Shown here: positions 17,775 to 39,580 of the stretch, piece after piece
Layout of the letters: every line of letters begins with the position of its first letter
How positions within the stretch are numbered: position 1 is the stretch's first letter
Assembly (NCBI GenBank): GCA_964016885.1
Contig: OZ024751.1
Coordinates: 11,966,001 to 12,030,000, forward strand
Direction: 5' to 3'
Source of the DNA: Eledone cirrhosa
Taxonomy: Eukaryota
DNA length: 64,000 nucleotides
The notes under the pieces: generated by a model
Database searches by the model: none
What the model was told of the DNA's origin: nothing
What the model saw: only the letters and a program-made list of their open reading frames with translations
Program-made: the position numbers and the translations under genes

Positions 17775-18082
17775 TATCAATCTATTTGCTTGGCTGTATA
17801 TTTATATATTTAAATAATAATCCATCTCACTCTCTCTTTCTCACTCCCCCTCTCTCTCTATTTCCCTCTTTCTCTCTATTTCCCTCTTTCTCTCTCTCTC
17901 TCTCTTTTATTCTTTCTCTTCCTTTCTCTTTCTATCATTCTGAAAAATCGACAAAAAAAAGCAACATTTCACATTTCAAGAGAAGACATTTTTTTCTCCT
18001 CTTCTTTAATATGCAGATTTGATTGAGTGATGGCATATTGTAATGTCTTCTATCATTTTTTTTTTGTTTCTTCTTTGCAATG

Positions 18083-18795
<713 letters not shown>

Positions 18796-18820
18796 GTGTA
18801 TGTATGTATGTATGTATGTA

Positions 18821-19270
18821 TATTCTTCTGGTTTTATAATTCATAAATATTTCCCAATAAAAAGAGCGCCGGTTTCTAACATAGACACAAGACTCTCTCA
18901 ATGGAATTTAAACATCACCTAGGTAGATGTGTATGAATATCTGCATGCATACATGCATGTGTGTGCAGGTATGGATGTTAATGTAAGTGTGCATGTGCTT
19001 ATGCTTTGTATCTGTACATGTATAAATGAAGTTATTCGATGCAGCATTTTTGGAATGCTTTACATATTTTTACTGTTCCGTTAATGGATTGTACTTGTAA
19101 TTTCCTAACTAGTTGTATTCTTTCTGTTCCTGTGAAGCCCAGCTTCTCTAGATTTGTACTGAGGCAGTTACTAACATATTCTAGTGCCCCAATAATCACA
19201 GGTATAAATCTAAATGTATAGTAATAGTGGAGTATCTGTAGATTTCTCATTAGTTCTGCATATATATTGT
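18821..19270 (-). mobile_element. R4/Dong-like RLE C-terminal remnant with 3' UTR
   Basis: IYAELMRNLQILHYYYTFRFIPVIIGAL..GTVKICKAF is homologous to the C-terminus of the 14509-15255 ORF; 3' end abuts (TACA)n. Confidence 0.8.
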
Positions 19271-19324
19271 ATTGGCATCTGCTGGGCAGATAACTTCCAC
19301 TACTTTGCATGCCTACTTTTCCCT

Positions 19325-19500
19325 TGGCAGTATCGGTAGAGAGTCGGACATACTTTCCAGCATAGTTACTTCCATTTACGATCTAAGTTCAAATTCCGCC
19401 GAGATTAACTTTGCCTTTCATCCTTACGGGGTCGATAAAATAAAGTACCAGTAATGCACTGGTAAATTGCTAGTCTTGTGCCAATAGTAGAAACAATTAT
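19325..19500 (+). mobile_element. tRNA-derived SINE
   Basis: A box, B box, body and tail present. Confidence 0.85.
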
Positions 19501-19701
19501 ATATGGTCTGTTATGTTTGCATTTTATTGTTTCATGAAGGAACATTCCACTAGTACTCTTTCATATTATATATGTATATGTCTTCCACATTGCTGTAATT
19601 ATTAATGTGTTTATTGTTGGGAATATCTTTTCTACGGATTGCATATATATGTATGTGTGTATATATGTATGTGTTTGTGTGTATGTATATATGTATGTGT
19701 G

Positions 19702-19772
<71 letters not shown>

Positions 19773-21024
19773 ACACTCACATACATACACACACACACTC
19801 ACATATATATGTGAGTGTATGTATATATGTAAGTGTGTATATATATATATACATATACGCCTATAGACACACACATATACACATATATTTGTTTCATTTC
19901 TCATAATTACAGTAGTAGTAGTAGTAGTAGTAATAATAGTTTTGTATGTAGCCTGAAATCAATTCAACATTAAGGTGAGATACTTTATATCTGTAGAGAG
20001 GAACTGTCGTAACATATCTGCCCAAAGCCACTCGTCCATTAATGAACGGGTTGAAAGGTTTTTCTTCTCTGAAGAACTCACTCCGAATCATTAGATATTT
20101 CATTTCTTTATGACACATTAACATTAAATGTTAATTCATTTTTTTCTGTTTTGTATTAACGTCTTTACTTAATTCATATAATTTATAGAAAATATACTTT
20201 CGTCGCGTCTCTTTCTAAGCTAGAACCCTATTTATCCAGAGTTCGAGACCTATGTGTTGCTCTTAAACGTTAAATTGCTTACCTCCGGGTCAAAGGGTTA
20301 GTTCGAGTTGAGCAAAGCAGGGCAGCTAAAACAAAAAAAAAATGAAATAAATAATAATAGTAATAATAATAACATAAATAATAACATAAATAACTATCAA
20401 AATCAAGATCAGCAACAAGAATAAGAACAATAAAAACAATAACAACAATGAACACAACTGTGACGAGAAAGATGGAAAATACCGACGAAGAAGGCGAGAA
20501 AAATAAAACAGGAACAAAAAAATCAATGAAAAACAATGAAGTAATTTTGTTGCTAAATTATTGGTCCATAGCTAGAGTTCTTGAACGAAGAATCAAATAC
20601 CAGCCCAGCGGTGATATAATAATGACATTTACAAGTCACATATCATGTCAAAGAGCAAACTTGAAAGGACCTAATTTAATCAAGGAATTTCGGAAATCGA
20701 TGACTACTGCTAGAGATCAAAAGAACTGCAGAATTCGATAATGATAATCGTTGTTCGGAATTGATTGGAATGAAGACGAAATGAACGCAACGGTGTTATT
20801 GTTCGCATCAATACTTTTGTTAAATATACTGCGAATGAGTGTATAAATTTATTGGCTGCAAGATACTCAGTGACAAGATCGAATCCTGTCTCTCACATTG
20901 GCACCCTGGCGTGTCATATTTTTATTTTATTATATCCGTTGTTGTTTATTTCTTTTATTTATTTTTCGATGTAAATATCATGACTGAAACTCTGTTATTC
21001 CAAACAAATAGACATATCGGATAT

Positions 21025-21312
21025 TCTTAGTTCTTAGGTTCTTCCACGCCTTTCGGCACATCGAGCAGTAAGTAGTCGCCAATGATCACGATCAGCGGCG
21101 GCGTTTTCACGTCATCAAGTGGAGTCAGTTCATCGCTGTTTTCAAGTGTCGTTCGTTGGGCAGGCACAGAATATGCGTTGAGCTCCAGCCACCGTTGGCG
21201 ATCAACTTCATTGATTTCCAGAAGTCATTCTACAGTGTGCATCGGGAATCGATGTGTAATATCGTGCACTTGTACGGCATTCCTGCAAGATTCATTGCCA
21301 TCTTTATATCGG
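21025..21312. mobile_element. RTE-group LINE remnant: RT fragment (+) joined to a 3' end (-)
   Basis: LAINFIDFQKSFYSVHRES..YGIP (FxDFxKAFDSV-like RT motif); minus-strand end tgtgccgaaaggcgtggaagaacctaagaactaag. Confidence 0.6.
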
Positions 21313-21734
21313 ACATAAGAAACAACATTTTCATTAATCATTCAATTTATGACACTATTTTCTGTCCGTAATTCCTGGCAGACGTAAGTGGGATTTGAAC
21401 TCAGAATGTAAAATGCAAAAACAGTTACTGCAAAGAATACGGCCCGACTTTTAAACAATTCTACCAAGAAAATGCACCTAGGACTTCCATTTATTGACAG
21501 ACGGAGAGTTGTGATCTAAAGGAGTTGCGATCCGGAACATAAACCGACGCATTTAATCCGGCTTTGTCACATGTAAAACGGAAAATATTCATAATCATTT
21601 TCAATATCTACATATAATATATAGTTACAAGTTAATGACATTGAGATTTTTATCGTTTGGTATGCTATGGTATGGTCCCATAAACCCTGGGAGAGTCGGG
21701 GAGGCACCGTACTAAAGTACGGTGTTTCTTGGGT

Positions 21735-21784
<50 letters not shown>

Positions 21785-21807
21785 ATATATTTACAGTGGT
21801 GGCTTTG

Positions 21808-21911
21808 TTCGGATCTAGCTGTCGAAACGACCGTATCTCAGCCGTCGGGGTCCTGAATCTTTCCATATTACCCACTCTACTACCCCAAGTATCGAGTACA
21901 CCATATTTGTT
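21808..21911 (+). mobile_element. Family A PLE end fragment (second subfamily)
   Basis: cggatctagctgtcgaaacg..ctcagccgtcggggtcctg..attacccactctactacccc. Confidence 0.7.
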
Positions 21912-22239
21912 ATATATAGATATATATATATATTTATATATATATGTTAAATATTTGTATAGAAGGTATGGCCTTGCATGTACATATACATACGTACAAA
22001 CATATGAGATGATAACCTTCAGCACACTGGCATGGAGGAAAAAAACTAACACACAGACTCAGAGATAGAATACGTTACTCCATTGTCTAACAGTAATGGC
22101 GTCTAATTACATGCATCACATAGAAACAAATTAAGCTGGCATCTGAACACAGCTGAACAGAGATGTGAGGACACAAGGTTGACTTGACTAAATCTCATTC
22201 TCTACTATCATGGCAATAACTATCGAAACACGAGTTTAT

Positions 22240-22892
22240 ACACATGCACATACGCACACATGCACATCCGCACTCACGCACATACGCGTTCACACGCATA
22301 CATGTGCACATACATAGACTTACACACACCTACGTGCACATACGCACTCACACACATGCATTTTCACCTATATGCACTTACACATATATACATGTAATTG
22401 CACACACTCACACATATACATGCACATACATACACATACACACATGCAGCAACACACAAACCCATGCACATACATTTACACACATGCACATGCACACGCA
22501 CACATAAACACATGCACATACACACAAATACGTACACACATGCACATGCATAAAACCACATACATGCACACTTGCACATGCATACATCGTGTCTCTATAA
22601 AACTAAATGCTGTTTAAATGGTGAAGCGAATCTGACAACATTTAACATGTCACAGAAATGTCACACGCACATACACACACGCATACGCGAACACATACAC
22701 ACGTAAATACAGTCACACATATACACACAAGCGTACACACCGATATACATGCATGCACACAGATACACTCACACACATGCACATGCATACCGTATCACAA
22801 GCGTTATCACACATACACACACATAAACACACGGACACATACCATCACAAGCGTTATATCACACACACACATGCACACACACGCATGCACAC

Positions 22893-22931
<39 letters not shown>

Positions 22932-22950
22932 CACACATGCACACACTCCA
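22240..22950. repeat. Degenerate (CA)n/(CATA)n tract
   Basis: Direct reading. Confidence 0.85.
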
Positions 22951-23015
22951 TCACTAGTGTTATATCATACACACATAGACGCCATAATATAGTTTCATAT
23001 CACGCATTCACTAAA

Positions 23016-23296
23016 TAATTGTTGGCACAAGGCCAGCAATTTACCAGTACATTACTGGTACTTTATTTTATCGACCCCGTAAGGATGAAAGGCAAAGTTA
23101 ACCTCGACGGGATTTGAACTTCACTAAATAATTGTTTCTACCTTTGGCACAAGGCCAGCAATTTCCTAGTACATTACTGGTACTTTATTTTATCGGCCCC
23201 GTAAGGATGAAAGGCAAAGTTAACCTCGGCGGGATTTGAACTCAGATCGTAAAGGGACGTAACTACACTGGAAAGCATGTCTGACCATCTGCCAAT
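23016..23296 (-). mobile_element. SINE with tandemly duplicated 3' half
   Basis: Two consecutive reverse-complement SINE bodies, each preceded by tcactaaataattgtt. Confidence 0.8.
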
Positions 23297-23634
23297 AATG
23301 AAGATATCTTTTTTTATTTTTCGTTTTTTTATTTTGTACATAATATTTATTTTAATATTGAAGAACCAAAACAAAAAAACAATATTATTTCAAGATTGTG
23401 TAAAGATGTCAGTTGTAACATGTCTCAAAGTAAAAATTAAACCAACAACAGTGAGACTCAGAGATATGCTATCAATGTATTTGTTATGATATGACGTGCC
23501 AATTGTACTGGAGTAAATTTCTTGTTGGGACATTTGAACTGATATGTTTGGACGGGCAGGATTTAGAACATGGCTTACTCTAATAGCTCTAGTTCCCGGC
23601 ATTCTCATTTTCTGTCACTTTCTGTCTATCTTGT

Positions 23635-23692
<58 letters not shown>

Positions 23693-23783
23693 CGAAGGAA
23701 ATGTGGTAAGGAACCAGGTGGACCATAACGCACCAAAGTACTCAATACTTAGGGTAGTAGAGTGGGTAATAGGAACGAGTAGG

Positions 23784-23879
23784 ACTCCGACGTCTGAGCT
23801 CAAGCCGTTTCGACGGCTAATTCTGGACTAAATGAAAATGTTTATCCTGGTATATGAATAGCCGAGCTTCTCAGGGGTA
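23784..23879 (-). ncRNA. Atypical hammerhead ribozyme candidate in the PLE pseudo-LTR
   Basis: accc-CUGAGA-ag..cggcuauuc..gaauuagccg-uc-GAAA-cggc-uugagcuca-g(a/c)cgUC-gg(a/g)gu. Confidence 0.55.
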
Positions 23880-24982
23880 ATTCCATATATGGCAAAAGTT
23901 ATTGTCACAAGGATTGTTCAAAAGTTTGTTGTTGAAACCCATAATTCTATCAAGGCAATTTATGGAAGGAAGGGGTAGCTGAACCTGCCAGTAGAAGAAA
24001 GAGGGAGAGGGAGTGGAGGAAACCCAGTCGTGCGTTGATAGTGCCAACTACAGCAGGGCAGGAGGTCAAGCCAGTATAGTAGGGAGGGGGAGGAAGTCGA
24101 AACAATAAGTAAAACAATATAGAGTAAATATATAGAAGAATACCACAAATGTTAGAAATATATAAAAACAATTTTTTAGTTACTATTCCCTAACGACAGT
24201 CATCAAGTCTCTCACTTGTACTGCTAAACTATAGAAAAGTTTACTAGGTGGGACGGAATTGTAATGAGACCATTTTAAGAGTTAGTAGTAATCAACCGAG
24301 TATATCTTACGGTGACGGGTCAACAAGTGGGGGCCAAAATACTAAAGAAACTACCACGAAATAATAATTGAGAGTCCCGAAACCAATACGAAATAATTGT
24401 TTCCACCCTAGGCACAAGGCCAGCAACCACCCAGCACAAAAAATAAACTAATACGAAATAATAATTCAGAATCCCGAAAATGAATACTATCTCTAAGGCT
24501 GCCGCTACGATACAAAAATTCTAGCGCAAACTACATAAATACTCGTACGAAGTATATGAAAGATTTGATACGGAAAATTAATTCAGAATCCCCCCGCCAA
24601 AAAAAAAAAATACTGATATTCGAGAAATTAAAGCAGAGATACCACTAAAAAATGTAAAAAGCACGGAAATGGGGCAGCCATCGGATAAGAAAGCAAGTAT
24701 CTGGGGTCAATCACATCTGCTATAAAAAGCGGAGTCGGCCAATTCTATCATAGAATAGGGGATGGGGGTGGGGGTACTGAGGCTACAAAGGACCGAGGGG
24801 CTGCCTCGGGTGGGCGAGAAAGTGAAAAGGACGACGACAAAGAAGGAGGACTGGGGTGGAAGGACTAGGAAGGGATGGGGGAAGAAGGAAATATAGAGGA
24901 AACGATAAAAAGATATAAAAGAAGATCTTACGTCTACCTCTGCAAGTAGGGGTTACCCATTACAAAGTCGGCAAGTGGAGTG

Positions 24983-25220
24983 TTACAGCCCTTGTTTACC
25001 CCCCCCCCCTTCCGGGTCATTGTGGGGTTTGAGGGCGAGGTAAGTCCTACGCAATCTGTGTTTGCATGCAGTTACCAGTTCGTCTTTCTTGTTTAGGAGT
25101 TGGTCCGTCGAAAACAGCATTTGTAAAGTTTCCTCTGAGCATAAATTGCACGGGCGGCGTCCTCCCGTGTAAGAGTTGGCTCTGGACAGTAAGCTCCAAG
25201 TGAGATCATAGGTAATATGA
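24983..25220 (-). pseudogene. C-terminal remnant of PLE GIY-YIG endonuclease
   Basis: Hand translation TYDLTWSLLSRANSYTGGRRPCNLCSEETLQMLFSTDQLLNKKDELVTACKHRL aligns with the end of the 58152-59870 element. Confidence 0.8.
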
Positions 25221-25929
25221 ATTAATTTTCCGTATCAGATTTTTCATATACTTCGTACGAGTATTTATGTAGTTTGCACTAGAATTTTTGTTTCGTAGCG
25301 GCAGCCTTAGAGATAGTATTCATTTTCGGGATTCTGGATTATTATTTCGTATTAGTTTATTTTTTGTACTGGGTGGTTGCTGGCCTTGTGCCTGATGTGG
25401 AAACATTTATTTCGTATTAGTTTCGGGACTCTGAATTATTATTTCGTGGTAGTTTCTTTAGTATTTTGGCCCCCCACTTGTTGACCTGTCACCGTAAGAT
25501 ATACTCGGTTGATTACTACTAACTCTTAAAATGGTCTCATTACAATTCCGTCCCACTTAGTAAACTATTCTATAGTTTAGCAGTACCAGTGAGAGACTTG
25601 ATGACTGTCGTTAGGGAATAGTAACCAGAAATTGCTTTTTTATATTTTTAATATTCTTGGTATTCTTCTATATATTTACTCTACATTGATTTACTTATTG
25701 TTTCGACTTCCTCCCCCTCCCCTCCCTAATATACTGGCTTGACCTCCTGCCCTGCTGTAGTTGGCACTATCAACGCACGACTGGGTTTCCTCCACTCCCT
25801 CTCCCTCTTTCTTCTACTGGCAGGTTCAGCTACCCCTTCCTTCCACAAATTGCCTTGATAGAATTATGTGTCTCAACCACAAACTTTTGAACAATCCTTG
25901 TGACAATCACTTTTACCAGATATGGAATT

Positions 25930-26024
25930 ACCCCCTGAGAAGCTCGGCTATTCATATACCAGGATAAAAATTTCATTTAGTCCAGAATTAGCCGTCGAGA
26001 CGGCTTGAACTCAGCCGTCTAGGT
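25930..26024 (+). ncRNA. Second, mutated copy of the atypical hammerhead
   Basis: Same layout as 23784-23879 but GAAA changed to GAGA. Confidence 0.4.
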
Positions 26025-26034
26025 CCTACTCGTT

Positions 26035-26080
<46 letters not shown>

Positions 26081-26083
<3 letters not shown>

Positions 26084-26235
26084 AAGAAATTAAAAGATGG
26101 TTAAAAAAGTTCCATATATTGTATTATGCGCATTTCGAAAACAACATCATCCTGGGAAAAAAATTCTGTGCTCATCAGATAAAATAAGTTAACATGATAT
26201 GAAGCCTAAAAACACTTGTGAACAAGAAAGTGTCT
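26081..26235 (-). mobile_element. Family C ~155-bp HHR-bearing element (probable PLE end)
   Basis: Homologous to 30527-30682 and 34513-34672; minus-strand CUGAUGA..GAAA-UGCGCA-UA at 26117-26186. Confidence 0.7.
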
Positions 26236-26385
26236 ACTTTTTTAACGATCTTTTAATTTCTTTATATATACTCCAGTTCTACCAACTGTTGAGAGATACT
26301 TATCTGATATATGCGTGGTTTTATTGTTCAACAATATTACTCACCTCCTACATATATATATGTATGTATATATATATATATATAT

Positions 26386-26427
26386 AAGAAGCAGGACCCC
26401 GGCTGAGCTCTTGCCGTTTCGACGATT
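26386..26427 (-). mobile_element. Very short family A fragment
   Basis: caggaccccggctgagctcttgccgtttcgacg between TA runs. Confidence 0.55.
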
Positions 26428-26436
26428 GTATATATA

Positions 26437-27481
26437 TTGTCAAAGTTCTTTCGTCTCACATTCTGTGACCTCTTCAGTCACTGGGGATTCTTTTCTTTGT
26501 TTTTGTGCCTCTCCTTTGTTCTGTCCTACGCCATCTCGTTTTTTTTTGTGTGTTGTGTGCTTAGTTTGCGCATGTGTTACATCCGGGTGTCTGTGTGTGT
26601 TTATATTTGTTTATTTACATGTTACTGGTTGGTTGTTTGTTCTATGTGTGTGTGTGTGTTTTCATTCTGTCCTTAATTGTAAGTTGTGATGTTGCTATTC
26701 CATTCATGTTTTTCTATTTAATTTTGGTTGGAGGTCATTTATATTTATTGCCTCTGTGACTTGTCTAAACATTGCGTCTTTTCTGTGTGTAGATTCTATT
26801 TTTATTTCTATGTTCTCTAATTTACCCTTATGTTCTATTGTAACATGTTGGTGGAGTACAAATGATTCTTTTCTATCTTGAAGCTCTCGCCAGTGTTCAT
26901 TTATCCGTTCTCCTATACTACGAACTGTCTCACCTATGTACACTATATTCTTATCTCTACATTGTCCTTCAGTACATCTTATGCTATATACTTCATTTCT
27001 AGTTTTACAGTTAATATGGGGGCTTAGTTTACAGATTATACATTTCTCATCTATACAGGGAGGTCTTTGAAAAGGGTATTATTGCTAATAAGTGTTTTTA
27101 TGGAGGTACCTGGTCTTTCTACTATCTTAATATTGAGTTTATGTTTATCTAGGGCCCTTCTAAATTTGTAAGCTAATTCACCTCTAGGGGTTGTATTGAT
27201 GAACATTACACTCTGGTATTTATTGCTATCATACCATGAGTTTATTCAATTAACCTTATTCATAGTTCTTTCTATTCTATTCCAAAATTTGCTCCTGTAC
27301 AAGGGGCAGGTCCCATTTGTATCATTATTTACCATGTTTTCCCATTTGCTTCTGGTTCCGCTATATACTCTGATTTTATATCTCTGATTGTAACCAGAGA
27401 ACTGCATACGGTGGATGAAGTGTTGTATGTGTCTCTCTAGTACTTTGGGGTTGCACATGCGGCACACGTTTCTCATCACCG
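26437..27481 (-). mobile_element. Penelope-like element 3' part (RT thumb, Cys-rich linker, GIY-YIG; Neptune-like), pseudogenised
   Basis: VY..C..YIGETVRSIGERINEH..H..H..RQVTEA..I..P.LN; CxxxxCxxC linker; in-frame stop and frameshift. Confidence 0.8.
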
Positions 27482-28206
27482 GTGATGTCATGTGGTACTC
27501 GTTAATCTATTGTACTTAATTCGAAACTTACGGTGCCCTACATATGTAGTGTTTTACCTGAATGTTGGCCTGCATAATCACTGTCTTGCACATGTATTAC
27601 CTTGCACTTGTAGTAGCTTGCACATGTAATAGCCTGCATGTCTGTTAATAATGTGTGTTAATCCGTCACACGCTTTATCACCATCACGTGATCCATGCTT
27701 GTTTGCAGAAGAGTTCATTCTGTTGCAATATTTCGCACTAAAACCCAATTTAAATCTAACTTCGCCATCATTATAAACATTCCTGGAATCTCCTATGAAT
27801 ACAATGAGACGGGAGTATTCACCAACCTCTAGAACAAGCGATATATATCTGAAAGACACAGAAGTCTACACACAAAATCTCCAACTAATAAGCGTTGCCT
27901 TCATTTTTGCTAATGCTTTTCATCTTTTTCTTGAGATGAAAATATTATATTACATAATATGCTGACGGAACTATACCGAAAAAATGCCTAAAACGTTACT
28001 TCAGGGTATCGAAGATTTAAAACCAGTTTACAAGGAGATTAAAATGTAAACAAATAAAAATTAAAATAAAATAAAATGTAAACAGGGAAACTAAATTCTG
28101 GGAATCCTTGCAAATACATAATATTCCTCATATTTCTACGAATCCAGTTAAAATATATTACAGTTTAGTAAATCTGAAATCTGATTCTTTAAATTCAAAA
28201 TCATTA

Positions 28207-28328
<122 letters not shown>

Positions 28329-29156
28329 TCGTATACAAATGTTTATATATATATATATATATACACACAGACACGTATATATGCGTGTGTGTGTATTCGA
28401 GTATGTGTTTGTGATTTTTATATTTTTTTTATATTACATAGCAAATGATAAATAGATAAGAATGCTTGTAAACATGTACATAGGTGTGTAATACTTGTGT
28501 GTCTATATGCATTTATAAAGCCGAGTGCGTGCATTTGTATCTAAACACCAAAGATTCATACACACAGTCTTTCCTGTTTTACATCAAGAAAAAATATTAT
28601 TCAATATTCTTTTATACTAATTGTATAATATGAAACGTTGCCGCTAGGATAACTACCATTAACACAGCCATCATCCTCCTCATCAACATCATCATAAATA
28701 TCATCACCAGCATCATCATCAATATCATCATCGTCATAAATATCATCTTTCCGTGTTGGACGGGTTCTCACTACCCGAGAGTATTTTGTTCGGATAACTC
28801 TGTTATCCTCAAATGTTCCATATCATGACGGAGTTTCTGTAGTTGGAAATCTTTCTTTAACTCCAACCACTTTACATAATCTATTGGCTACTTTTAACGT
28901 GACTCCAACAATACGACTTAACAGAGTGTTATGGGTAAATTTGCGTGGTAGCATCACAACCACATTAGTCAGTGTACTAGGGTCGTTTTATAATGGCACC
29001 ATTACTAAGGAAAACGTCATATTTTTGTCAAAATCAACAGACCAGTTTATCCTATATTGTTTTCGTTTCAGTAATTTCTAATCAATAACCGGAGGAAAAG
29101 TGTATCAACATCCATGTTAGAGATCTATATGAAGGCATATATGTTTATTTATGATA

Positions 29157-29202
<46 letters not shown>

Positions 29203-29458
29203 GGATCCTCTACTGGTTAGGAGTCATCAAAACCACGTTTTATTGAACCTGATTTTATATATATATATATATATATATATTATGTGTATATATATATGTA
29301 TATATTTTATGTATATATATATATATATATGTATTTTATATATATGTGTGTATGTATATTTTATATGTGTATGTATTTTATGTGTGTATGTATTTTGTGT
29401 GTATGTATATATTTTATGTATATATATATTTTATATATATGTATATTTTATGTATATA

Positions 29459-29491
<33 letters not shown>

Positions 29492-30101
29492 CTTGTGCGT
29501 ACATATGTGCGTACACACCTGTATGGATTTGTGTGTGTAGATGTGTCTGTCTCTGAGGGGGTAGGTGTGAGTGTATGTACAAGTCAACCAACAAGCCTTT
29601 TATTTCTAAATTTTCTAAACTATCTAAGTATTGGACTCTAACCATTATTTTAAGTATTACCACCCCACATTAATTCCTCAATTTGTATGTGTGGATGTGT
29701 GTGTGTGTCTCTAGAGGTGGGTGTGAGTGTACGTGCAAGCCAACCTACATAAGTCTTTTTATTTGTAAATTTTCTACTCTAACCATAATTTTCAGTAGCC
29801 CATAAATTGCTCAATTTAAGAATCACCTGTAGTATCTATTTCATACTATTAACCTTAATATATATCTGACCAGGAATGCTTTTTGTGAAAATCAGTCATA
29901 TGGAACTATTGTCATCTTGCCTGATGGTTTGAACTTTACAACACCACCTGCCTCTTTGAGGTCAAATACCAATCCTACTAGCATCTACAAACTGACCAAT
30001 GAGAATTAAGACTATTCCTGCTGACAACATTAAATTATTCCTAACAAGCACATATGTCCCAAGGTTGGGACATATGAGCTGGCATATCTAAGAACTGACT
30101 A

Positions 30102-30157
30102 ACTGCCTGATGAGGTCATAGCCATTCAATGGCTATCATCGAAATATATATAGCAGT
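30102..30157 (+). ncRNA. Type I hammerhead ribozyme (same family as 13189-13243)
   Basis: acugc-CUGAUGA-ggucauagcca-uucaa-uggcuaucauc-GAAA-uauauaua-gcagu. Confidence 0.8.
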
Positions 30158-30489
30158 AAATAAAGGATTATGAGTTCATGCAATTGACTTATGTTTCGTC
30201 AATATATATATCTATAAGTAGAAGGGGTATTTGATTTGTTGGAAGTCCGAAAATATAAATGTTTATAACTGATTTAGAGCACTCAACAGCTTACTGGAGT
30301 AAATATTCAATGATATTAAATAAATGGAAACTATATTTATAAAACCATATTTATTTTATTATATATATTTCAAGGGTACCAAGACAACATTTGTACGCTT
30401 TCATCAGATAAAAAACAAAGTTTGTTTTATAAATAGAGACATACCCATGAAAATCATACCTTATCGGTTGGAAATTTACTGGATATCCA

Positions 30490-30526
<37 letters not shown>

Positions 30527-30530
<4 letters not shown>

Positions 30531-30682
30531 ATCAAAAGATGGTTAAAAGAGTTCTATGTATTTTATTATGCGCATTTCAAAAACAAATATCATCATGGGA
30601 TGATATTTGCGTTCTCATCAGATAAAATAGGGAGACATGATATGAAGCTTAAAAAAAACTTGCGAGCAGTGAAGTGTTAAAT
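30527..30682 (-). mobile_element. Family C HHR-bearing element
   Basis: Near-identical to 34513-34672; TA-flanked. Confidence 0.75.
30559..30629 (-). ncRNA. Type I hammerhead ribozyme (family C)
   Basis: uauuuuau-CUGAUGA-gaacgcaaauaucauc..gaugauauuuguuuuu-GAAA-UGCGCA-UA-auaaaaua; 8-bp stem I, palindromic stem III. Confidence 0.8.
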
Positions 30683-30684
30683 TT

Positions 30685-30723
<39 letters not shown>

Positions 30724-30841
30724 TCACTACGATTTTAGCTGTGATCATGACATAGCTACTGTTAGAGTATCATGTTTGTAATCCATCACCTGTGATGTTT
30801 ACTTACTCAGAGCTGAGACAAATTCAGGTTTTGACATAAGT

Positions 30842-30910
<69 letters not shown>

Positions 30911-30932
30911 GAGGAGGTTTGAGACCATTACT

Positions 30933-30970
30933 TCCCTCCGAAGAAGAGATATTATCTCGAAAATTAAGGA
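30933..30970 (+). ncRNA. Minimal hammerhead variant (CCGAAGA core)
   Basis: ccu-CCGAAGA-agagau-auu-aucuc-GAAA-aUUA-agg; related degenerate copy near 35755-35790. Confidence 0.5.
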
Positions 30971-31083
30971 CATCTAAATAAATTCAAGGTGAAAGACGAT
31001 TTCACATCAATATCTTTCACTATTGCATTATTTTTTCTATGTCCATACCTGCATTGTCTTGGCCTTATTACACATATTCTAAC

Positions 31084-31155
<72 letters not shown>

Positions 31156-31739
31156 TAGCGAGAATCGTATTTTAGCACAGGAATTAACGAAAATCAACAT
31201 CCGATATGTGTGGCAAGCGCTCGATGATTCATGTGAATCAGAGCTACAACATACGTTAAGGGCCAAACACACTGAGATGATGGTTAAACATATCATCCGC
31301 ACAGCCAAAACAAACGACCAAGTAATTCGGGTCAAACAATAAAAATATATGTGTTGATACTTTCCCGGACCCTGGACTGATGGTAAAATCCAGTATTGGT
31401 TTCTGCGACTCCAAAATCAGGTACTGTCCGCCTACATAAAGAATGTCTGACTTCAGGTAAGATGATGAACAATGAAGTCGTGTTATCAACGGGTTTTGTT
31501 ATAGGATGCTATAGATAAGTGTGTCTATTACTGACCCCACGTGGAGTTCAGCAAGGGAGGCAACAGCTCTATTTTGCGAATGATTCAGTTGTGTATAATA
31601 TTGCGAGAATGCAAAATATGACAAATCGAATAAAGCTCTCGACATATATATATATATAGACACACACGCACACGCACACGCACACGCACACACACGGTAC
31701 TTCGTGAATTCACATAAATAAATGACATAAGTGACATTA

Positions 31740-31927
31740 TGTTAATGAGAACGTCAGATACCATGCTTCGCGGTATAGATTTACGGCCCTTTACATTCTG
31801 AGTTTAAATCACGCTGAGGTTAGCTTTGCCTTTCATCCTTACGGGATCGGTTAAACAAGGTACCAGTAAGTCACTGAGTTCGATTTCCTCTAAAACTACT
31901 GGCCTTGTGCCTAAACAATCAGAAACT
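31740..31927 (+). mobile_element. Diverged SINE
   Basis: gctttgcctttcatccttacggg..gtaccagt..ggccttgtgcc. Confidence 0.75.
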
Positions 31928-32176
31928 AATGTATTATGTTAAAAACATAATAATATTAAACAGATAATTTGTTACAAAAAATAATTATGTGACCAAAATC
32001 GAGGAAAGCACTAATGATTTTAGAGATATGATAATATTTTAACAACTGATGAAACGTTCTTATCAAATATAATATACACCAGACGTACACATGTAATAAT
32101 TATAAGCATGTGTGGTTACATATGTATACATACAAGTATATATGTAAGTATTTGCGCATGCACATACATACATACA

Positions 32177-32207
<31 letters not shown>

Positions 32208-32601
32208 CAATAATGAGAAAAAAATGATGAAGTTTCGTTTACATGATTATATGAATATACAGTATATGTGTGTGTATATACGTCAGAGACGGGTATAGAT
32301 GAATATTTGTATTTTTTCACGTGTCTCTATCAGATTTTAACATAACATCCACCTGCTAGAAAACAAAGAACAGTATATATTAAAAAAAAAAGCATAATGA
32401 AATCGCGAGAAATTTCCAAAGATTGTATAAATACAACGAGAGTAAAAAGAGACATTCATATCTTTTTATGTGTCAAACCTCGTCAAATGACAGTGATATT
32501 TAGAAGAAGAATATAACAGTTACGAGAGGAGAGAAAATTAATGCAAAAGAAATATTCAACGCCTTCTGCAAGTCACCATTGCGTTTTATTATTTTTTATA
32601 T

Positions 32602-32797
32602 AAGGCGGTGGATTGGCAGTATTGGTAGAGGGGCGGACGCCATGCTTTGACGTGTAGAGTTGCGGCCCTTGCTATTCTGAGTTCAAATCCCGCCGAGGTT
32701 GACTTTGCCTTTCATCCTTCCGGGGTCGATAAAATAAAGTACCAGTAATGCACTGGGTATTTTCTGGCCTTGTGCCTAAAGTAGAAACAATTATTAT
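32602..32797 (+). mobile_element. Full-length tRNA-derived SINE
   Basis: A box, B box gagttcaaatccc, body and tail. Confidence 0.9.
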
Positions 32798-32979
32798 TGT
32801 GGTTGTTGTTGTTGTTCTGTCTATCGTTAGTATTATTACCAATATTACTATTTCTCACTCTCCTGCTATTGTTATGACTATTACTATTATAGCTGTTATT
32901 TCTATACTCAGAGTTATTGTTTATATTACTACTACCGTTATTATTGTTGTTGTCGTCCGTATAGTTGTTGCTGTTGTTT

Positions 32980-33718
32980 ACTTTTGCATTCCAACGTATT
33001 TTTGTGAAACACTTTTCCAGCCCTGTTTTGCACTCAATAAGGTTAATCTTTTTGTAGATGGCAAATTTTGGTGGTAGCTGCAGGATTTGTTGTTCTTGTT
33101 CACTGATTAAAGTGTTCCCATAAATATTTACTGTGTGGTCATTGGTAAATTCTTCCGGTAGTTTTACATCAGTCATACGTATATTGTTGATGTTATCTGG
33201 GTATTTTTGAGAATATACTATTTTCCTTTCTTGTAGTTTTTTCTTATTCATCCATTCTAATTTCTTATTGAAATGCCTATTGCATTCGTTTCGGGCGTAT
33301 TTCGATTCACGTCGGATGACGCTCATGAAGTCATCCTTTCGTTTGGTGTGGTGAGATTTTGGACTTCCTTACCCTTAATGCGTTTCTGTCTGTAAAGTTC
33401 GTTGACTTTTGTGTATGTTGTTCTTTTCATATTAACTGTTATTGTGTGTTTTAGTCGTTCAGCTTGTGTTTTGTTCAATAATAAATTATTTACTTGTTTT
33501 GATATGTTTGTTGTGTATATTTTGGAGGAAACACAGTGTTTTAAGAAGCGGATTTGTTCTGTTGTTATTGTACTTTTCATATAACAGAAAACATTGTCTT
33601 TCAATAACCTTTCAGCTTGGCACAAGCTAATGCCATGGCGGCGATGAATTAGTTTTGCGAGGTTTTTGATATGAAATCGTGTGTCGAAACAAATATTGTT
33701 ATACTTGGGGAGAGTCAT
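32980..33718 (-). pseudogene. N-terminal pre-RT region of a Penelope-like ORF (frameshifted)
   Basis: Overlapping basic ORFs 33323-33718 and 32712-33326; EQQILQLPPKFAI..EK...KIRW resembles the pre-RT motif of PLEs; degenerates into Asn repeats. Confidence 0.6.
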
Positions 33719-34039
33719 ATTTGTGTAATATTGACAGAATTAATAACAGAACACACTCACTGTTTGGTTGGTTTTCGCTTTTCGCTTCTGTGTCTTTTAT
33801 ATCGGTAATCTAATTTAATTTATTCGGTCCTCAATGTTGCCATTTACTGACCAACGGTCAGATTAAATAAAGATGGCGTAGAAAATACAATGCAACGGGA
33901 GGAAACAATAGCACCACTGACGATGTTGCAGATGTGCAACGAAAGAACTTTGATAAACTATATATATGTGTTTGTGTCTATATTGTATCTGTATTATTTT
34001 TGACCGTTGGTCAGTCAAACATTCGGGGTCAAACATTCT

Positions 34040-34095
<56 letters not shown>

Positions 34096-34114
34096 GTGTG
34101 TGTGTGTATTTTCG

Positions 34115-34235
34115 GGAGGGTCATGCTGCCAATAAAAACTCACGCACCGGTTTTCATTTCAATTCATCACAAATTTCCGGATGGTTGTTTATTTATTGTC
34201 AAAGATGTTTGGTCACACATTCTGTAACATCCTTA
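34115..34235. mobile_element. Dispersed repeat related to the 3' end of the 26.4-27.5 kb PLE
   Basis: gggtcatgctgccaataaaaac shared with ~44091; tgtcaaag..cacattctg shared with ~26438 and inverted at ~44240. Confidence 0.6.
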
Positions 34236-34447
34236 GTGACTATTTTTTTTTTTCGTGTCTCTTCTTTGTTCTTGCAAACCATTGTATTCCAATCCTTTAT
34301 ATATCTGACTCTCGGGGTTTTGAATACTCAATGACATCAAAATAAGCGTTTCTCATAAAAATACATTTCGCTTTGCTTCGATGGGATATTCACATGACCA
34401 TTACATCAAATTCTACCATAAATTGGATAGAACATTAAATAATAAAC

Positions 34448-34512
<65 letters not shown>

Positions 34513-34513
<1 letters not shown>

Positions 34514-34668
34514 AGATCAAAAGATGGTTAAAAGAGTACCAAGTATTTTATTATGCGCATTTCAAAAACAAATATCATTATGAGATGATATCTGCGTTTT
34601 CATCAGATAAAATAGGGATACATGATACGAAGCTTATAAAAACACTTGTGAATAGTGAAGTTTTAAAT

Positions 34669-34672
<4 letters not shown>
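34513..34672 (-). mobile_element. Family C HHR-bearing element (HHR at 34544-34614)
   Basis: CUGAUGA..GAAA-UGCGCA-UA with tattttat/ataaaata stem I. Confidence 0.75.
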
Positions 34673-34703
<31 letters not shown>

Positions 34704-34835
34704 GTATGTATGTATCAATTTATGCACTTATGTATGTATATGTTTATGCACGTATGTATGTATATATCCATGCACGTATGTATGTATATATCCATACATG
34801 TATGTATGTATATATTTATACATGTATGTATATCT

Positions 34836-35926
34836 GCCAAGTACGGATACATAAAGAACGAACTGACACGTATCCACAACAAATGCACCGACGCAAGAGA
34901 CCGAGGCACACACACTTTCTGGAAGTACTTAAACTAAACGGATACCCGACGTCCACCACGAACCGTACCAGAAACAAAAGAAGACACCACACCCAAAGCA
35001 CTAGCACCTGCTTCCTGAAGCTCCCACACTTCAGTGATGAAAACTACAACGGCCATCCGCAGGGCCATCAGACGAGAGGGACTAGTTATCCAGCTAGCCC
35101 ACTCATGACCCTAGCTACGCAGACAGCTAGCCAAGAGACACTCCACCAGACAAGACAACCGCTGCACGCTGGCCAACTGCCCCATCGACGACAGAGACCT
35201 ATGCCACCATGCATACGTCATCTACAGATTAGAATGCGACAAATGTAGCAACTTCTACATAGGTAGCACTACCAGACCACTTCACATTAGAATAAAAGAA
35301 CACCTCAGCACTAATGCTTCCTCATTTAAGAAACACCTAGTGAAATGTAAAAACACCTACAAAAACATAATGGTTAGGATAGAAGCTAAGGAAAGAAACC
35401 TCGGCAATCTTAGAATTAAAGAAGCACTAATTATAGACAAATCGCAACCACCAATCAATAATAGATTAGAACTCAACACCCAATTTATAAAATGATAGAG
35501 CATTTTACATCTCCACGCATCCTCTCTCTCTATCTATCTCTCTCACACACATGCTTACACCTTCATGTATTCTCTTACACACACACACACACACACACTT
35601 AGACATACATGTCCAAACCCTTTAAAAGGAGACAACTCTTTATTCACTTGACCAGCCCAAACCGTCACTCTTTGACATTAGAAATAGAATATAACTTTAT
35701 ACTACTTCCAGTCAGCATGACTTAGCAACCCACTTCGAACACTGGATTGACCCCTTTACAAAGAGATATTATTTCGAAATATCAGGATATATGAATAAAT
35801 TAAGATAAAAGACTAATTGTCAGCGTTAATTCTTAAATTTATATTCTATCTCCAAACCTACCTGGTTCTGGCCTTCTAGCTTCAAACTCATTATACAATT
35901 CTTCAAGTAAACTACAAATTCCTTCT
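34836..35926 (+). mobile_element. 5'-truncated Penelope-like element (RT thumb + GIY-YIG, frameshifted) with 3' UTR
   Basis: L..NGYP; VIYRLECDKCSNFYIGSTTRPLHIRIKEH..LRIKEALII..PPIN; stop 35493-35495. Confidence 0.85.
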
Positions 35927-39378: not shown

Positions 39379-39577
39379 TAACGAAGGAATTGTGGTAAGG
39401 AACCAGATGGACCATAACGCACCACAGTACTCTATACTTAGGGTAGTAGAGTGGGTAATAGGAAAAAGAATGACCCCGACGGCAGAGCTCAAGCCGTTTC
39501 GACGGCTATTTCTGGACGTCCAGAAATAGCCGTCGAAACGGCTTGAGCTCTGCCGTCGGGGTCATTCTTTTTCCTAT

Positions 39578-39580
<3 letters not shown>
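39379..39580 (-). mobile_element. Family A PLE end fragment with perfect 126-bp palindrome
   Basis: Tail 39379-39454, then perfect inverted arms 39455-39517/39518-39580. Confidence 0.85.

Follow-up and report, generated by a model that had tools for sequence, protein, structure and literature searches.

A type I hammerhead with an unusual core and a long stem II in a Hydra-clade PLE of Eledone cirrhosa, and genomic junctions likely to record its cleavage

A family of Hydra-clade PLEs in Eledone cirrhosa carries, in its 3' pseudo-LTR, a type I hammerhead with a 7-nt YUGANAA box and a 56-nt stem II, which probably cleaved the element RNA in vivo at GUC/GGGG (the slash marks the cut). The family is of value chiefly because its junctions likely register cleavage in vivo and because, on a single backbone, it displays a natural range of 3:8 core states, one of them a mismatch generally regarded as inactivating. 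The motif was found in a stretch of 64,000 nucleotides (contig OZ024751.1, positions 11,966,001 to 12,030,000), referred to below as the window.

The window contains two inverted copies of the hammerhead (Table 1), and the letters quoted for them in an initial annotation were found in both places. That annotation had also described both copies as mutated, which proved correct: copy 1 lacks one stem I C, and its stems I and III each contain a disrupted pair; in copy 2 GAGA replaces GAAA, with loss of A14, and TAGGT replaces GGGGT. The predicted hammerhead-fold probability of copy 1 was near zero, single-strand folding of the window copy was not above that of shuffled sequences (z 0.25), and both copies are predicted to be inactive. 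Nearly all of 29 close relatives collected from the genome read ACCCC-CUGAGAAG ... GUC-GGGGU. The comparison with Rfam hammerhead models that the annotation had proposed gave no match at E up to 10 in window 15000-35000 or in two intact copies (L137, L022).

Table 1. Hammerhead and PLE features in the window (window positions; the slash marks the predicted cut)
Feature	Position	Strand	Remarks
Hammerhead copy 1	23784-23879	minus	letters quoted in the initial annotation present
Hammerhead copy 2, decayed	25930-26024	plus	inverted; box 1 at 25935-25941, GAGA at 25997-26000, stem I 3' strand TAGGT
PLE copy 1, 5'-truncated	23691..25218	minus	endonuclease C-terminus remnant, 3' UTR, hammerhead, tail; (TA)n on flanks
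PLE copy 2, 5'-truncated, inverted	25218..26039	plus	short 3' end, then (TA)n; 94% identity to 23769-24585
Stem I 5' strand	23875..23878	minus	ACCC in window; ACCCC in most family copies
Core box 1 CUGAGAA	23868..23874	minus	C3 U4 G5 A6 G7 A8 A9; C3·A8 mismatch, most subfamilies U3-A8
Stem II	23812..23867	minus	G10.1 at 23867, C11.1 at 23812; small internal loop, CGGCUA/UAGCCG helix, ~39-nt variable insert
Core box 2 GAAA	23808..23811	minus	G12 A13 A14 A15.1
Stem III	23790..23808	minus	family ACGGCU/AGCCGU; one pair broken in window copy; loop UGAGCUC
GUC triplet	23789-23791	minus	read in window letters
Predicted cleavage site GUC/GG	23788..23789	minus	end point of family mini-insertions
Stem I 3' strand	23784..23788	minus	GGAGU in window; family GGGGU
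Optional ~80-nt tail	23691..23771	minus	between two insertion 3' ends, ~+17-20 and +98 from cut site

Seven short head-to-head fragments of the same family are also present in the window (1514-1676, 2517-2690, 39379-39580, 51285-51427, 56472-56581, 57926-58101 and 26390-26430), and none of the seven has an end exactly at the cut site. Within window ~23815-23845 the summed contig depth drops roughly tenfold or more upstream of ~23830, and the upper end of the 3' strand of stem II is the site of many inverted joins; truncation within the stem II insert appears to affect most copies.

The ORF of longer copies (L162-L168), examined by eye, contains RLRWRTFF, HSDKTGN, LYRDDGL, a CxCX5C linker (CNCPDGSIF/LC), AYIG, CNLC and ACKH, and is without a CCHH motif. 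This architecture, with RWK-like and DKT motifs and an RT followed by a C-terminal GIY-YIG-type nuclease, CxxC and CxH, fits the Hydra clade, for which the definition and published proteins are given in PMC8557442; the family ORF resembles those proteins in a by-eye comparison. Pfam gave no match to the family's Hydra-type ORFs. In one copy (L164) two hammerheads lie 3.6 kb apart with the ORF between them, which identifies the flanking regions as pseudo-LTRs. The annotation was right to assign the motif to the type I hammerheads and to place it in the pseudo-LTR of a PLE of Hydra type. Family insertions sit in (TA)n, partial tandem and inverted copies occur, and the 3' end of an insertion falls at one of two places, ~17-20 or 98 nt downstream of the predicted cut. 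By analogy with the anole PLE, which has two RT start sites downstream of its hammerhead (PMC11167929), the two ends likely represent two RT start sites.

Several other repeats occur in the window. The RT and nuclease of a second Hydra-like PLE family, the RT of which is 53% identical to that of the family studied and which has many long open genome copies, are encoded at 58146-59788 (plus). The element's 3' UTR, at 24344-24487 and 25324-25459, contains short internal repeats, and a 40-nt piece of it is common to a frequent SINE-like repeat (GGCACAAGGCCAGC) that is also found at 9587, 16730, 17123, 23024 and 23146. Other retroelement ORF fragments, recognised by eye at 14476-15255 (plus), 19032-19382 (minus), 32712-33739 (minus) and 35115-35495 (plus), include restriction-like nuclease types, an N-terminal PLE-like region and a GIY-YIG-like frame. 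Another repeat, with copies at 30107-30144 (plus) and 13202-13238 (minus), has a canonical CUGANGA ... GAAA core, with actgc/gcagt as stem I and, in the region of stem III, an AT-rich palindrome. Further hammerhead-like motifs with canonical cores were seen at 33917-33944 (plus), 14417-14440 (plus), 26133-26178 (minus) and 26449-26477 (minus), the last of which lies downstream of a GIY-YIG ORF (26704-27078, PF01541) and is without a clear stem I. Elsewhere in the genome, four near-identical U3·G8 hammerheads of a distant family lie ~26.5 kb apart at one locus (L154), which looks like a large tandem repeat.

Genome-wide, the pattern CCC-YUGANAAG ... GUCGAAAC had 6793 matches, and the reversed pattern used as a control had 0; with G at position 8 the pattern had 80 matches and the control 1. 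With 6793 A8 matches against 80 with G8, a CUGANGA search misses the family, as the annotation had anticipated, and ~6,800 copies escape both CUGANGA descriptors and Rfam, the latter as tried on the three sequences given above. Position 7 was A, C, G or U, differing between subfamilies, while A8 and A9-G10.1 were fixed. This indicates that the first box is YUGANAA, of 7 nt, and family B likewise has UUGAUAAG. The annotation had read the box as one base short (CUGA-GA). For the family as a whole this reading fails, since a four-base position 7 together with fixed A8 and A9-G10.1 rules out an N7-deleted core; it survives only as an option in the C3 subfamilies, in which C3 might pair with G7.

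The pair at positions 3 and 8 takes several states. Most copies are U3-A8, 1405 of the 6793 matches are C3·A8, the state of the window's lineage, approximately 20 of the 80 matches with G8 belong together as a single U3·G8 subfamily, and the canonical CUGANGA (C3-G8) was seen in three distant copies (L151-L153). In other words, the 3:8 pair is Watson-Crick in most copies and in the three distant ones, and mismatched in the window's lineage. The rest of the core is nearly uniform: among 24 aligned copies U4 G5 A6, A9, G10.1 and C11.1 were invariant (24/24) and G12-A14 were conserved in at least 90%, and the hammerhead core as a whole (U4 G5 A6, A9, G12 A13 A14, A15.1-U16.1 and H17) was invariant or at least 90% conserved. 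Judged by its sequence, this is a real type I hammerhead motif, far above chance.

The three helices, in the order I-II-III-I', had 83% of cells paired in the 24 aligned copies, compared to 19-50% in slid controls. Two-sided changes were found in stem I (CG/GC) and in stem II (GC/AU). The very long stem II described in the annotation measures 56 nt from G10.1 to C11.1, and the self-complementary loop III is the palindromic UGAGCUC. Stem III is of 5-6 bp with 81% of cells paired, which excludes a minimal dimer-only PLE hammerhead, with stem III absent or of 1-2 bp; with stems II and III of these sizes the motif could fold as a monomer. Covariation was modest, with 17 of 500 shuffles reaching the observed score and 331 of 500 the observed pair count, and the RNAalifold consensus did not recover the hammerhead fold. 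In most subfamilies a competing fold was 0.8-3.6 kcal/mol more stable. The predicted probability of the hammerhead fold was 0.47 for Y1a, only 0.018 for one Y1b copy, 0.05-0.07 for Y2, 0.004-0.02 for C3 copies and 0.007-0.05 for older U3 copies. Between extant subfamilies, 43 positions of the core and stems had a net divergence of 0-0.027, against 0.06-0.17 for the stem II insert and 0.15-0.29 for the 3' UTR.

A tree of 60 copies was built from the 3' UTR and hammerhead with positions 3, 7 and 8 masked and a midpoint root; it excludes, out of 146 distinct copies, 77 in which the homologous upstream sequence fell short of 350 nt and 9 near-identical rows of family A, and the G8 rows were chosen by the G8 pattern, several of them being single decayed copies. 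The tree is a ladder, with older U3·G8 and U3-A8 copies basal, then serial C3·A8 subfamilies, then U3-A8 again. The C3·A8 stretch spans ~0.38 changes per column of backbone, and the copies that returned to U3-A8, one group of which has U7, have the shortest end branches; because the root is a midpoint, the direction of the tree rests on the lengths of these end branches. The C3·A8 label changed 3 times on the tree (at least 2 changes are forced), compared to 20.2 times with shuffled labels. As placed on this tree, the window's lineage kept C3·A8 through several subfamilies and then reverted to U3-A8; retention across successive subfamilies indicates a lasting state of an active lineage rather than decay. 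The deeper order, C3-G8, U3·G8 and then U3-A8, can only be suggested, since the distant C3-G8 copies lie outside the 60-row tree.

How a C3·A8 core would stay active, as distinct from whether cleavage occurs at all, might be explained by a shift of register, in which C3 pairs with G7 to give CUGA-GA plus an extra A before G10.1. G7 is present in 93 of 100 C3 copies among the matches listed, so such a pair could form in place of C3·A8, and every C3 row of the tree has G7, whereas any of the four bases occurs there in U3 rows. Metazoan PLE hammerheads typically have one extra base between positions 9 and 10.1 (PMC4209133). However, C3·A8 accounts for only 2-3 label changes on the tree, so the link between C3 and G7 may be a single historical event. 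Sister subfamilies hold the 7-nt register, the lineage itself went back to U3-A8, and removal of N7 would be expected to strain the core, in which A6 and the N7 phosphate are in contact (PMC3088659). A shifted register is rather unlikely, and the 7-nt box is the preferred reading for the C3 subfamilies as well.

The evidence for cleavage itself comes from very short insertions. Many insertions of the family consist of two cDNAs in a head-to-head join, and a search for very short joins of this kind found 812. In 20 of the 50 loci listed, both arms end at the cut site, giving GACCCC-(insert)-GGGGTC; untemplated bases, mostly A/T, lie between the arms in 17 of these loci, and the other 3 joins are blunt. 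Blunt GACCCCGGGGTC joins such as these 3 can also arise from CG microhomology. The remaining joins among the 50 are mostly at the palindromic GAGCTC loop. These tallies were counted by eye from the listings, and a uniform null, which ignores palindromic hot spots, predicts that ~2% of joins would have both arms at the cut site. A search with the downstream signature of the window copy found 73 short joins, and in the first 30 of them (L201-L230) the arm end coincides exactly with G1.1 in 35 of 60 arms, 9 arms are shorter by 1-2 nt, 10 reach +1 and 6 extend further, the +1 arms being mostly explained by overlap of the two arms. Short and tailed arms share the stop, which indicates that it is set by position rather than by cDNA length, and the position is the one at which the hammerhead is predicted to cut. 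RT run-off at an RNA 5' end would leave untemplated additions at a fixed position. The junctions likely record run-off of reverse transcriptase on RNA that had cleaved itself in vivo.

Both-arm cut-site joins were seen in every lineage tested. Subfamilies of mini-insertions were assigned by 1-2 diagnostic bases in small samples, and on this basis the 50 loci listed of the 812 gave 12/19 in Y1, 5/11 in Y2, 2/17 in the CCTACTCG class, 1/1 in class I and 0/2 among mixed loci. In 100 of 183 rows listed, the counts were 3/9 in class I, 1/16 in A2 and ~15/68 in the older U3 class (O), and in B/D they were ~10/51. The ranking of the subfamilies tracks predicted folding better than core state, the share being highest where the predicted fold is the hammerhead.

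It could be argued that C3·A8 killed the ribozyme, that its lineage spread without cleavage and that its cut-site insertions came from co-existing U3-A8 templates with the same tail. The anole PLE hammerhead loses its activity through a single C3G or G8C change (PMC11167929). The CCTACTCG class combines family A, which is C3, with a U3 subfamily that has reverted, and its cut-site joins (2/17) are rarer than those of the young U3-A8 families (17/30, p 0.005). Against this, the C3 classes did not differ from older U3 copies (4/25 and 15/68, p 0.77), so a large loss of activity is not supported, nor is a step in which a weakened core was favoured. Class I, in which 5 of 5 full copies are C3, has cut-site joins at the rate given above. 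Three both-arm junctions, plus one degenerate match, have CCATCTGG tails, a tail that all 3 full CCTACTCG copies combine with C3. Among 30 short-join loci of the CCTACTCG class listed, 23 carry the family-A tail, 2 the reverted U3 tail and 5 were assigned to neither, although the assignment to C3·A8 is not watertight because only 3 copies define the tail of the reverted subfamily. Finally, core and stems are conserved between the C3 subfamilies A and A2, with a net divergence of 0.025 compared to 0.129 in the stem II insert and 0.15 in the UTR. Loss of the ribozyme in the C3·A8 lineage thus appears improbable, and it is likely that C3·A8 RNAs, with joins at the cut site in their subfamilies, were also cut.

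The stop at G1.1 might have another cause altogether, such as a transcription start site, a cut made by a protein or an RT roadblock at the three-way junction, with the motif kept as a structure recognised by RT rather than as a catalyst. The hammerhead of the anole PLE is dispensable for insertion in vitro (PMC11167929), and PLE promoters have been located in the pLTR (PMC6765202). The 10 arms of 60 that reach +1 would fit a stall at stem III, but most of these are accounted for by the overlap of arms, and 35 of the 60 stop at the exact hammerhead position. A cap is expected to give an extra G, and the added bases are mostly A/T, which argues against a capped start. The invariance of U4 G5 A6, A9, G10.1 and C11.1, with G12-A14 almost as constant, argues against a role other than catalysis. 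Causes of this kind are quite unlikely, and self-cleavage by the hammerhead remains the preferred explanation of the junctions.

If RNA of the family was self-cleaved, then RT that starts downstream of the cut site, at a distance of ~17-20 or 98 nt, would reach the new 5' end, run off there and append untemplated bases, and two such run-off cDNAs, dead ends of 17-98 nt, would be joined to give a mini-insertion. On uncut or re-ligated circular RNA, RT would read through to give longer copies. Since cut RNA would yield dead ends and uncut or circular RNA long copies, cleavage was likely partial, and the C3·A8 lineage likely kept some activity. Weak cleavage may have been tolerated or even favoured, since a cut would part the RT start site from the body of the element; were weak cleavage harmless or useful, this would explain the tolerance of U3·G8 and C3·A8. 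A more far-reaching reading, possible though on balance doubtful, is that the junctions are a datable fossil record of cleavage in vivo, in which the ribozyme passed through C3-G8, U3·G8, U3-A8, C3·A8 and again U3-A8 while cutting, possibly by way of the C3-G7 register, and in which its activity was tuned down because each cut dead-ends an RT start unless the RNA is circularised. Cut-site mini-insertions would provide a readout of cleavage from DNA only, usable on any PLE-rich genome and datable by subfamily.

Ribozymes are placed differently in other retroelements. R2 elements with HDV-like ribozymes have their RNA cut at the 5' end, which gives a full-length template, whereas here the RT start sites follow closely downstream of the cut, which would give dead-end cDNAs of 17-98 nt. 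Hydra PLE hammerheads and the U3-A8 core are already known. U3-A8 covariation is found in natural hammerhead variants reported to be active in vitro (Perreault et al. 2011, PMC3088659), but neither a C3·A8 mismatch nor an N7 deletion was found in the excerpts of that report. The in vivo role of hammerheads is called unknown in reviews (PMC7761336, PMC6765202). A lineage with C3·A8, a Hydra element with a stem II this large and junctions in a genome at the cut site of a PLE hammerhead were all absent from the excerpts of hammerhead and PLE papers that were searched.

The family resembles Hydra-clade PLEs, including Hydra-1_Obim (Craig et al. 2021, PMC8557442), in its ORF motifs, (TA)n targeting, inverted 5'-truncated partner, optional tail and hammerhead near the 3' end. 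Its tail is longer, ~80 nt compared to 30-40, and the family is absent from the Hydra hammerheads in the excerpt of File S2 of that study, which are all CUGANGA with stem II loops of at most 10 nt; Hydra-1_Obim itself has a canonical core and is not the same family. In Schistosoma, the Cercyon PLEs have minimal hammerheads with U3-A8 (Cervera and De la Peña 2014, PMC4209133), which share with the present family the type I topology in the pLTR, U3-A8, G10.1-C11.1, a stem I of 4-5 bp and a palindromic loop III, while the family here differs in its 56-nt stem II and 5-6 bp stem III, in having U3·G8 and C3·A8 as whole subfamilies, and in the genomic junctions that mark its cut site. Poseidon PAc, a green anole element (Frangieh et al. 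2024, PMC11167929), likewise has a tail set by two downstream RT starts and AT-rich targets; its hammerhead is C3-G8 and, in the excerpts of that study, no RNA reads start at its cut site, whereas in the family described here cDNA ends in the genome concentrate at its own cut site.
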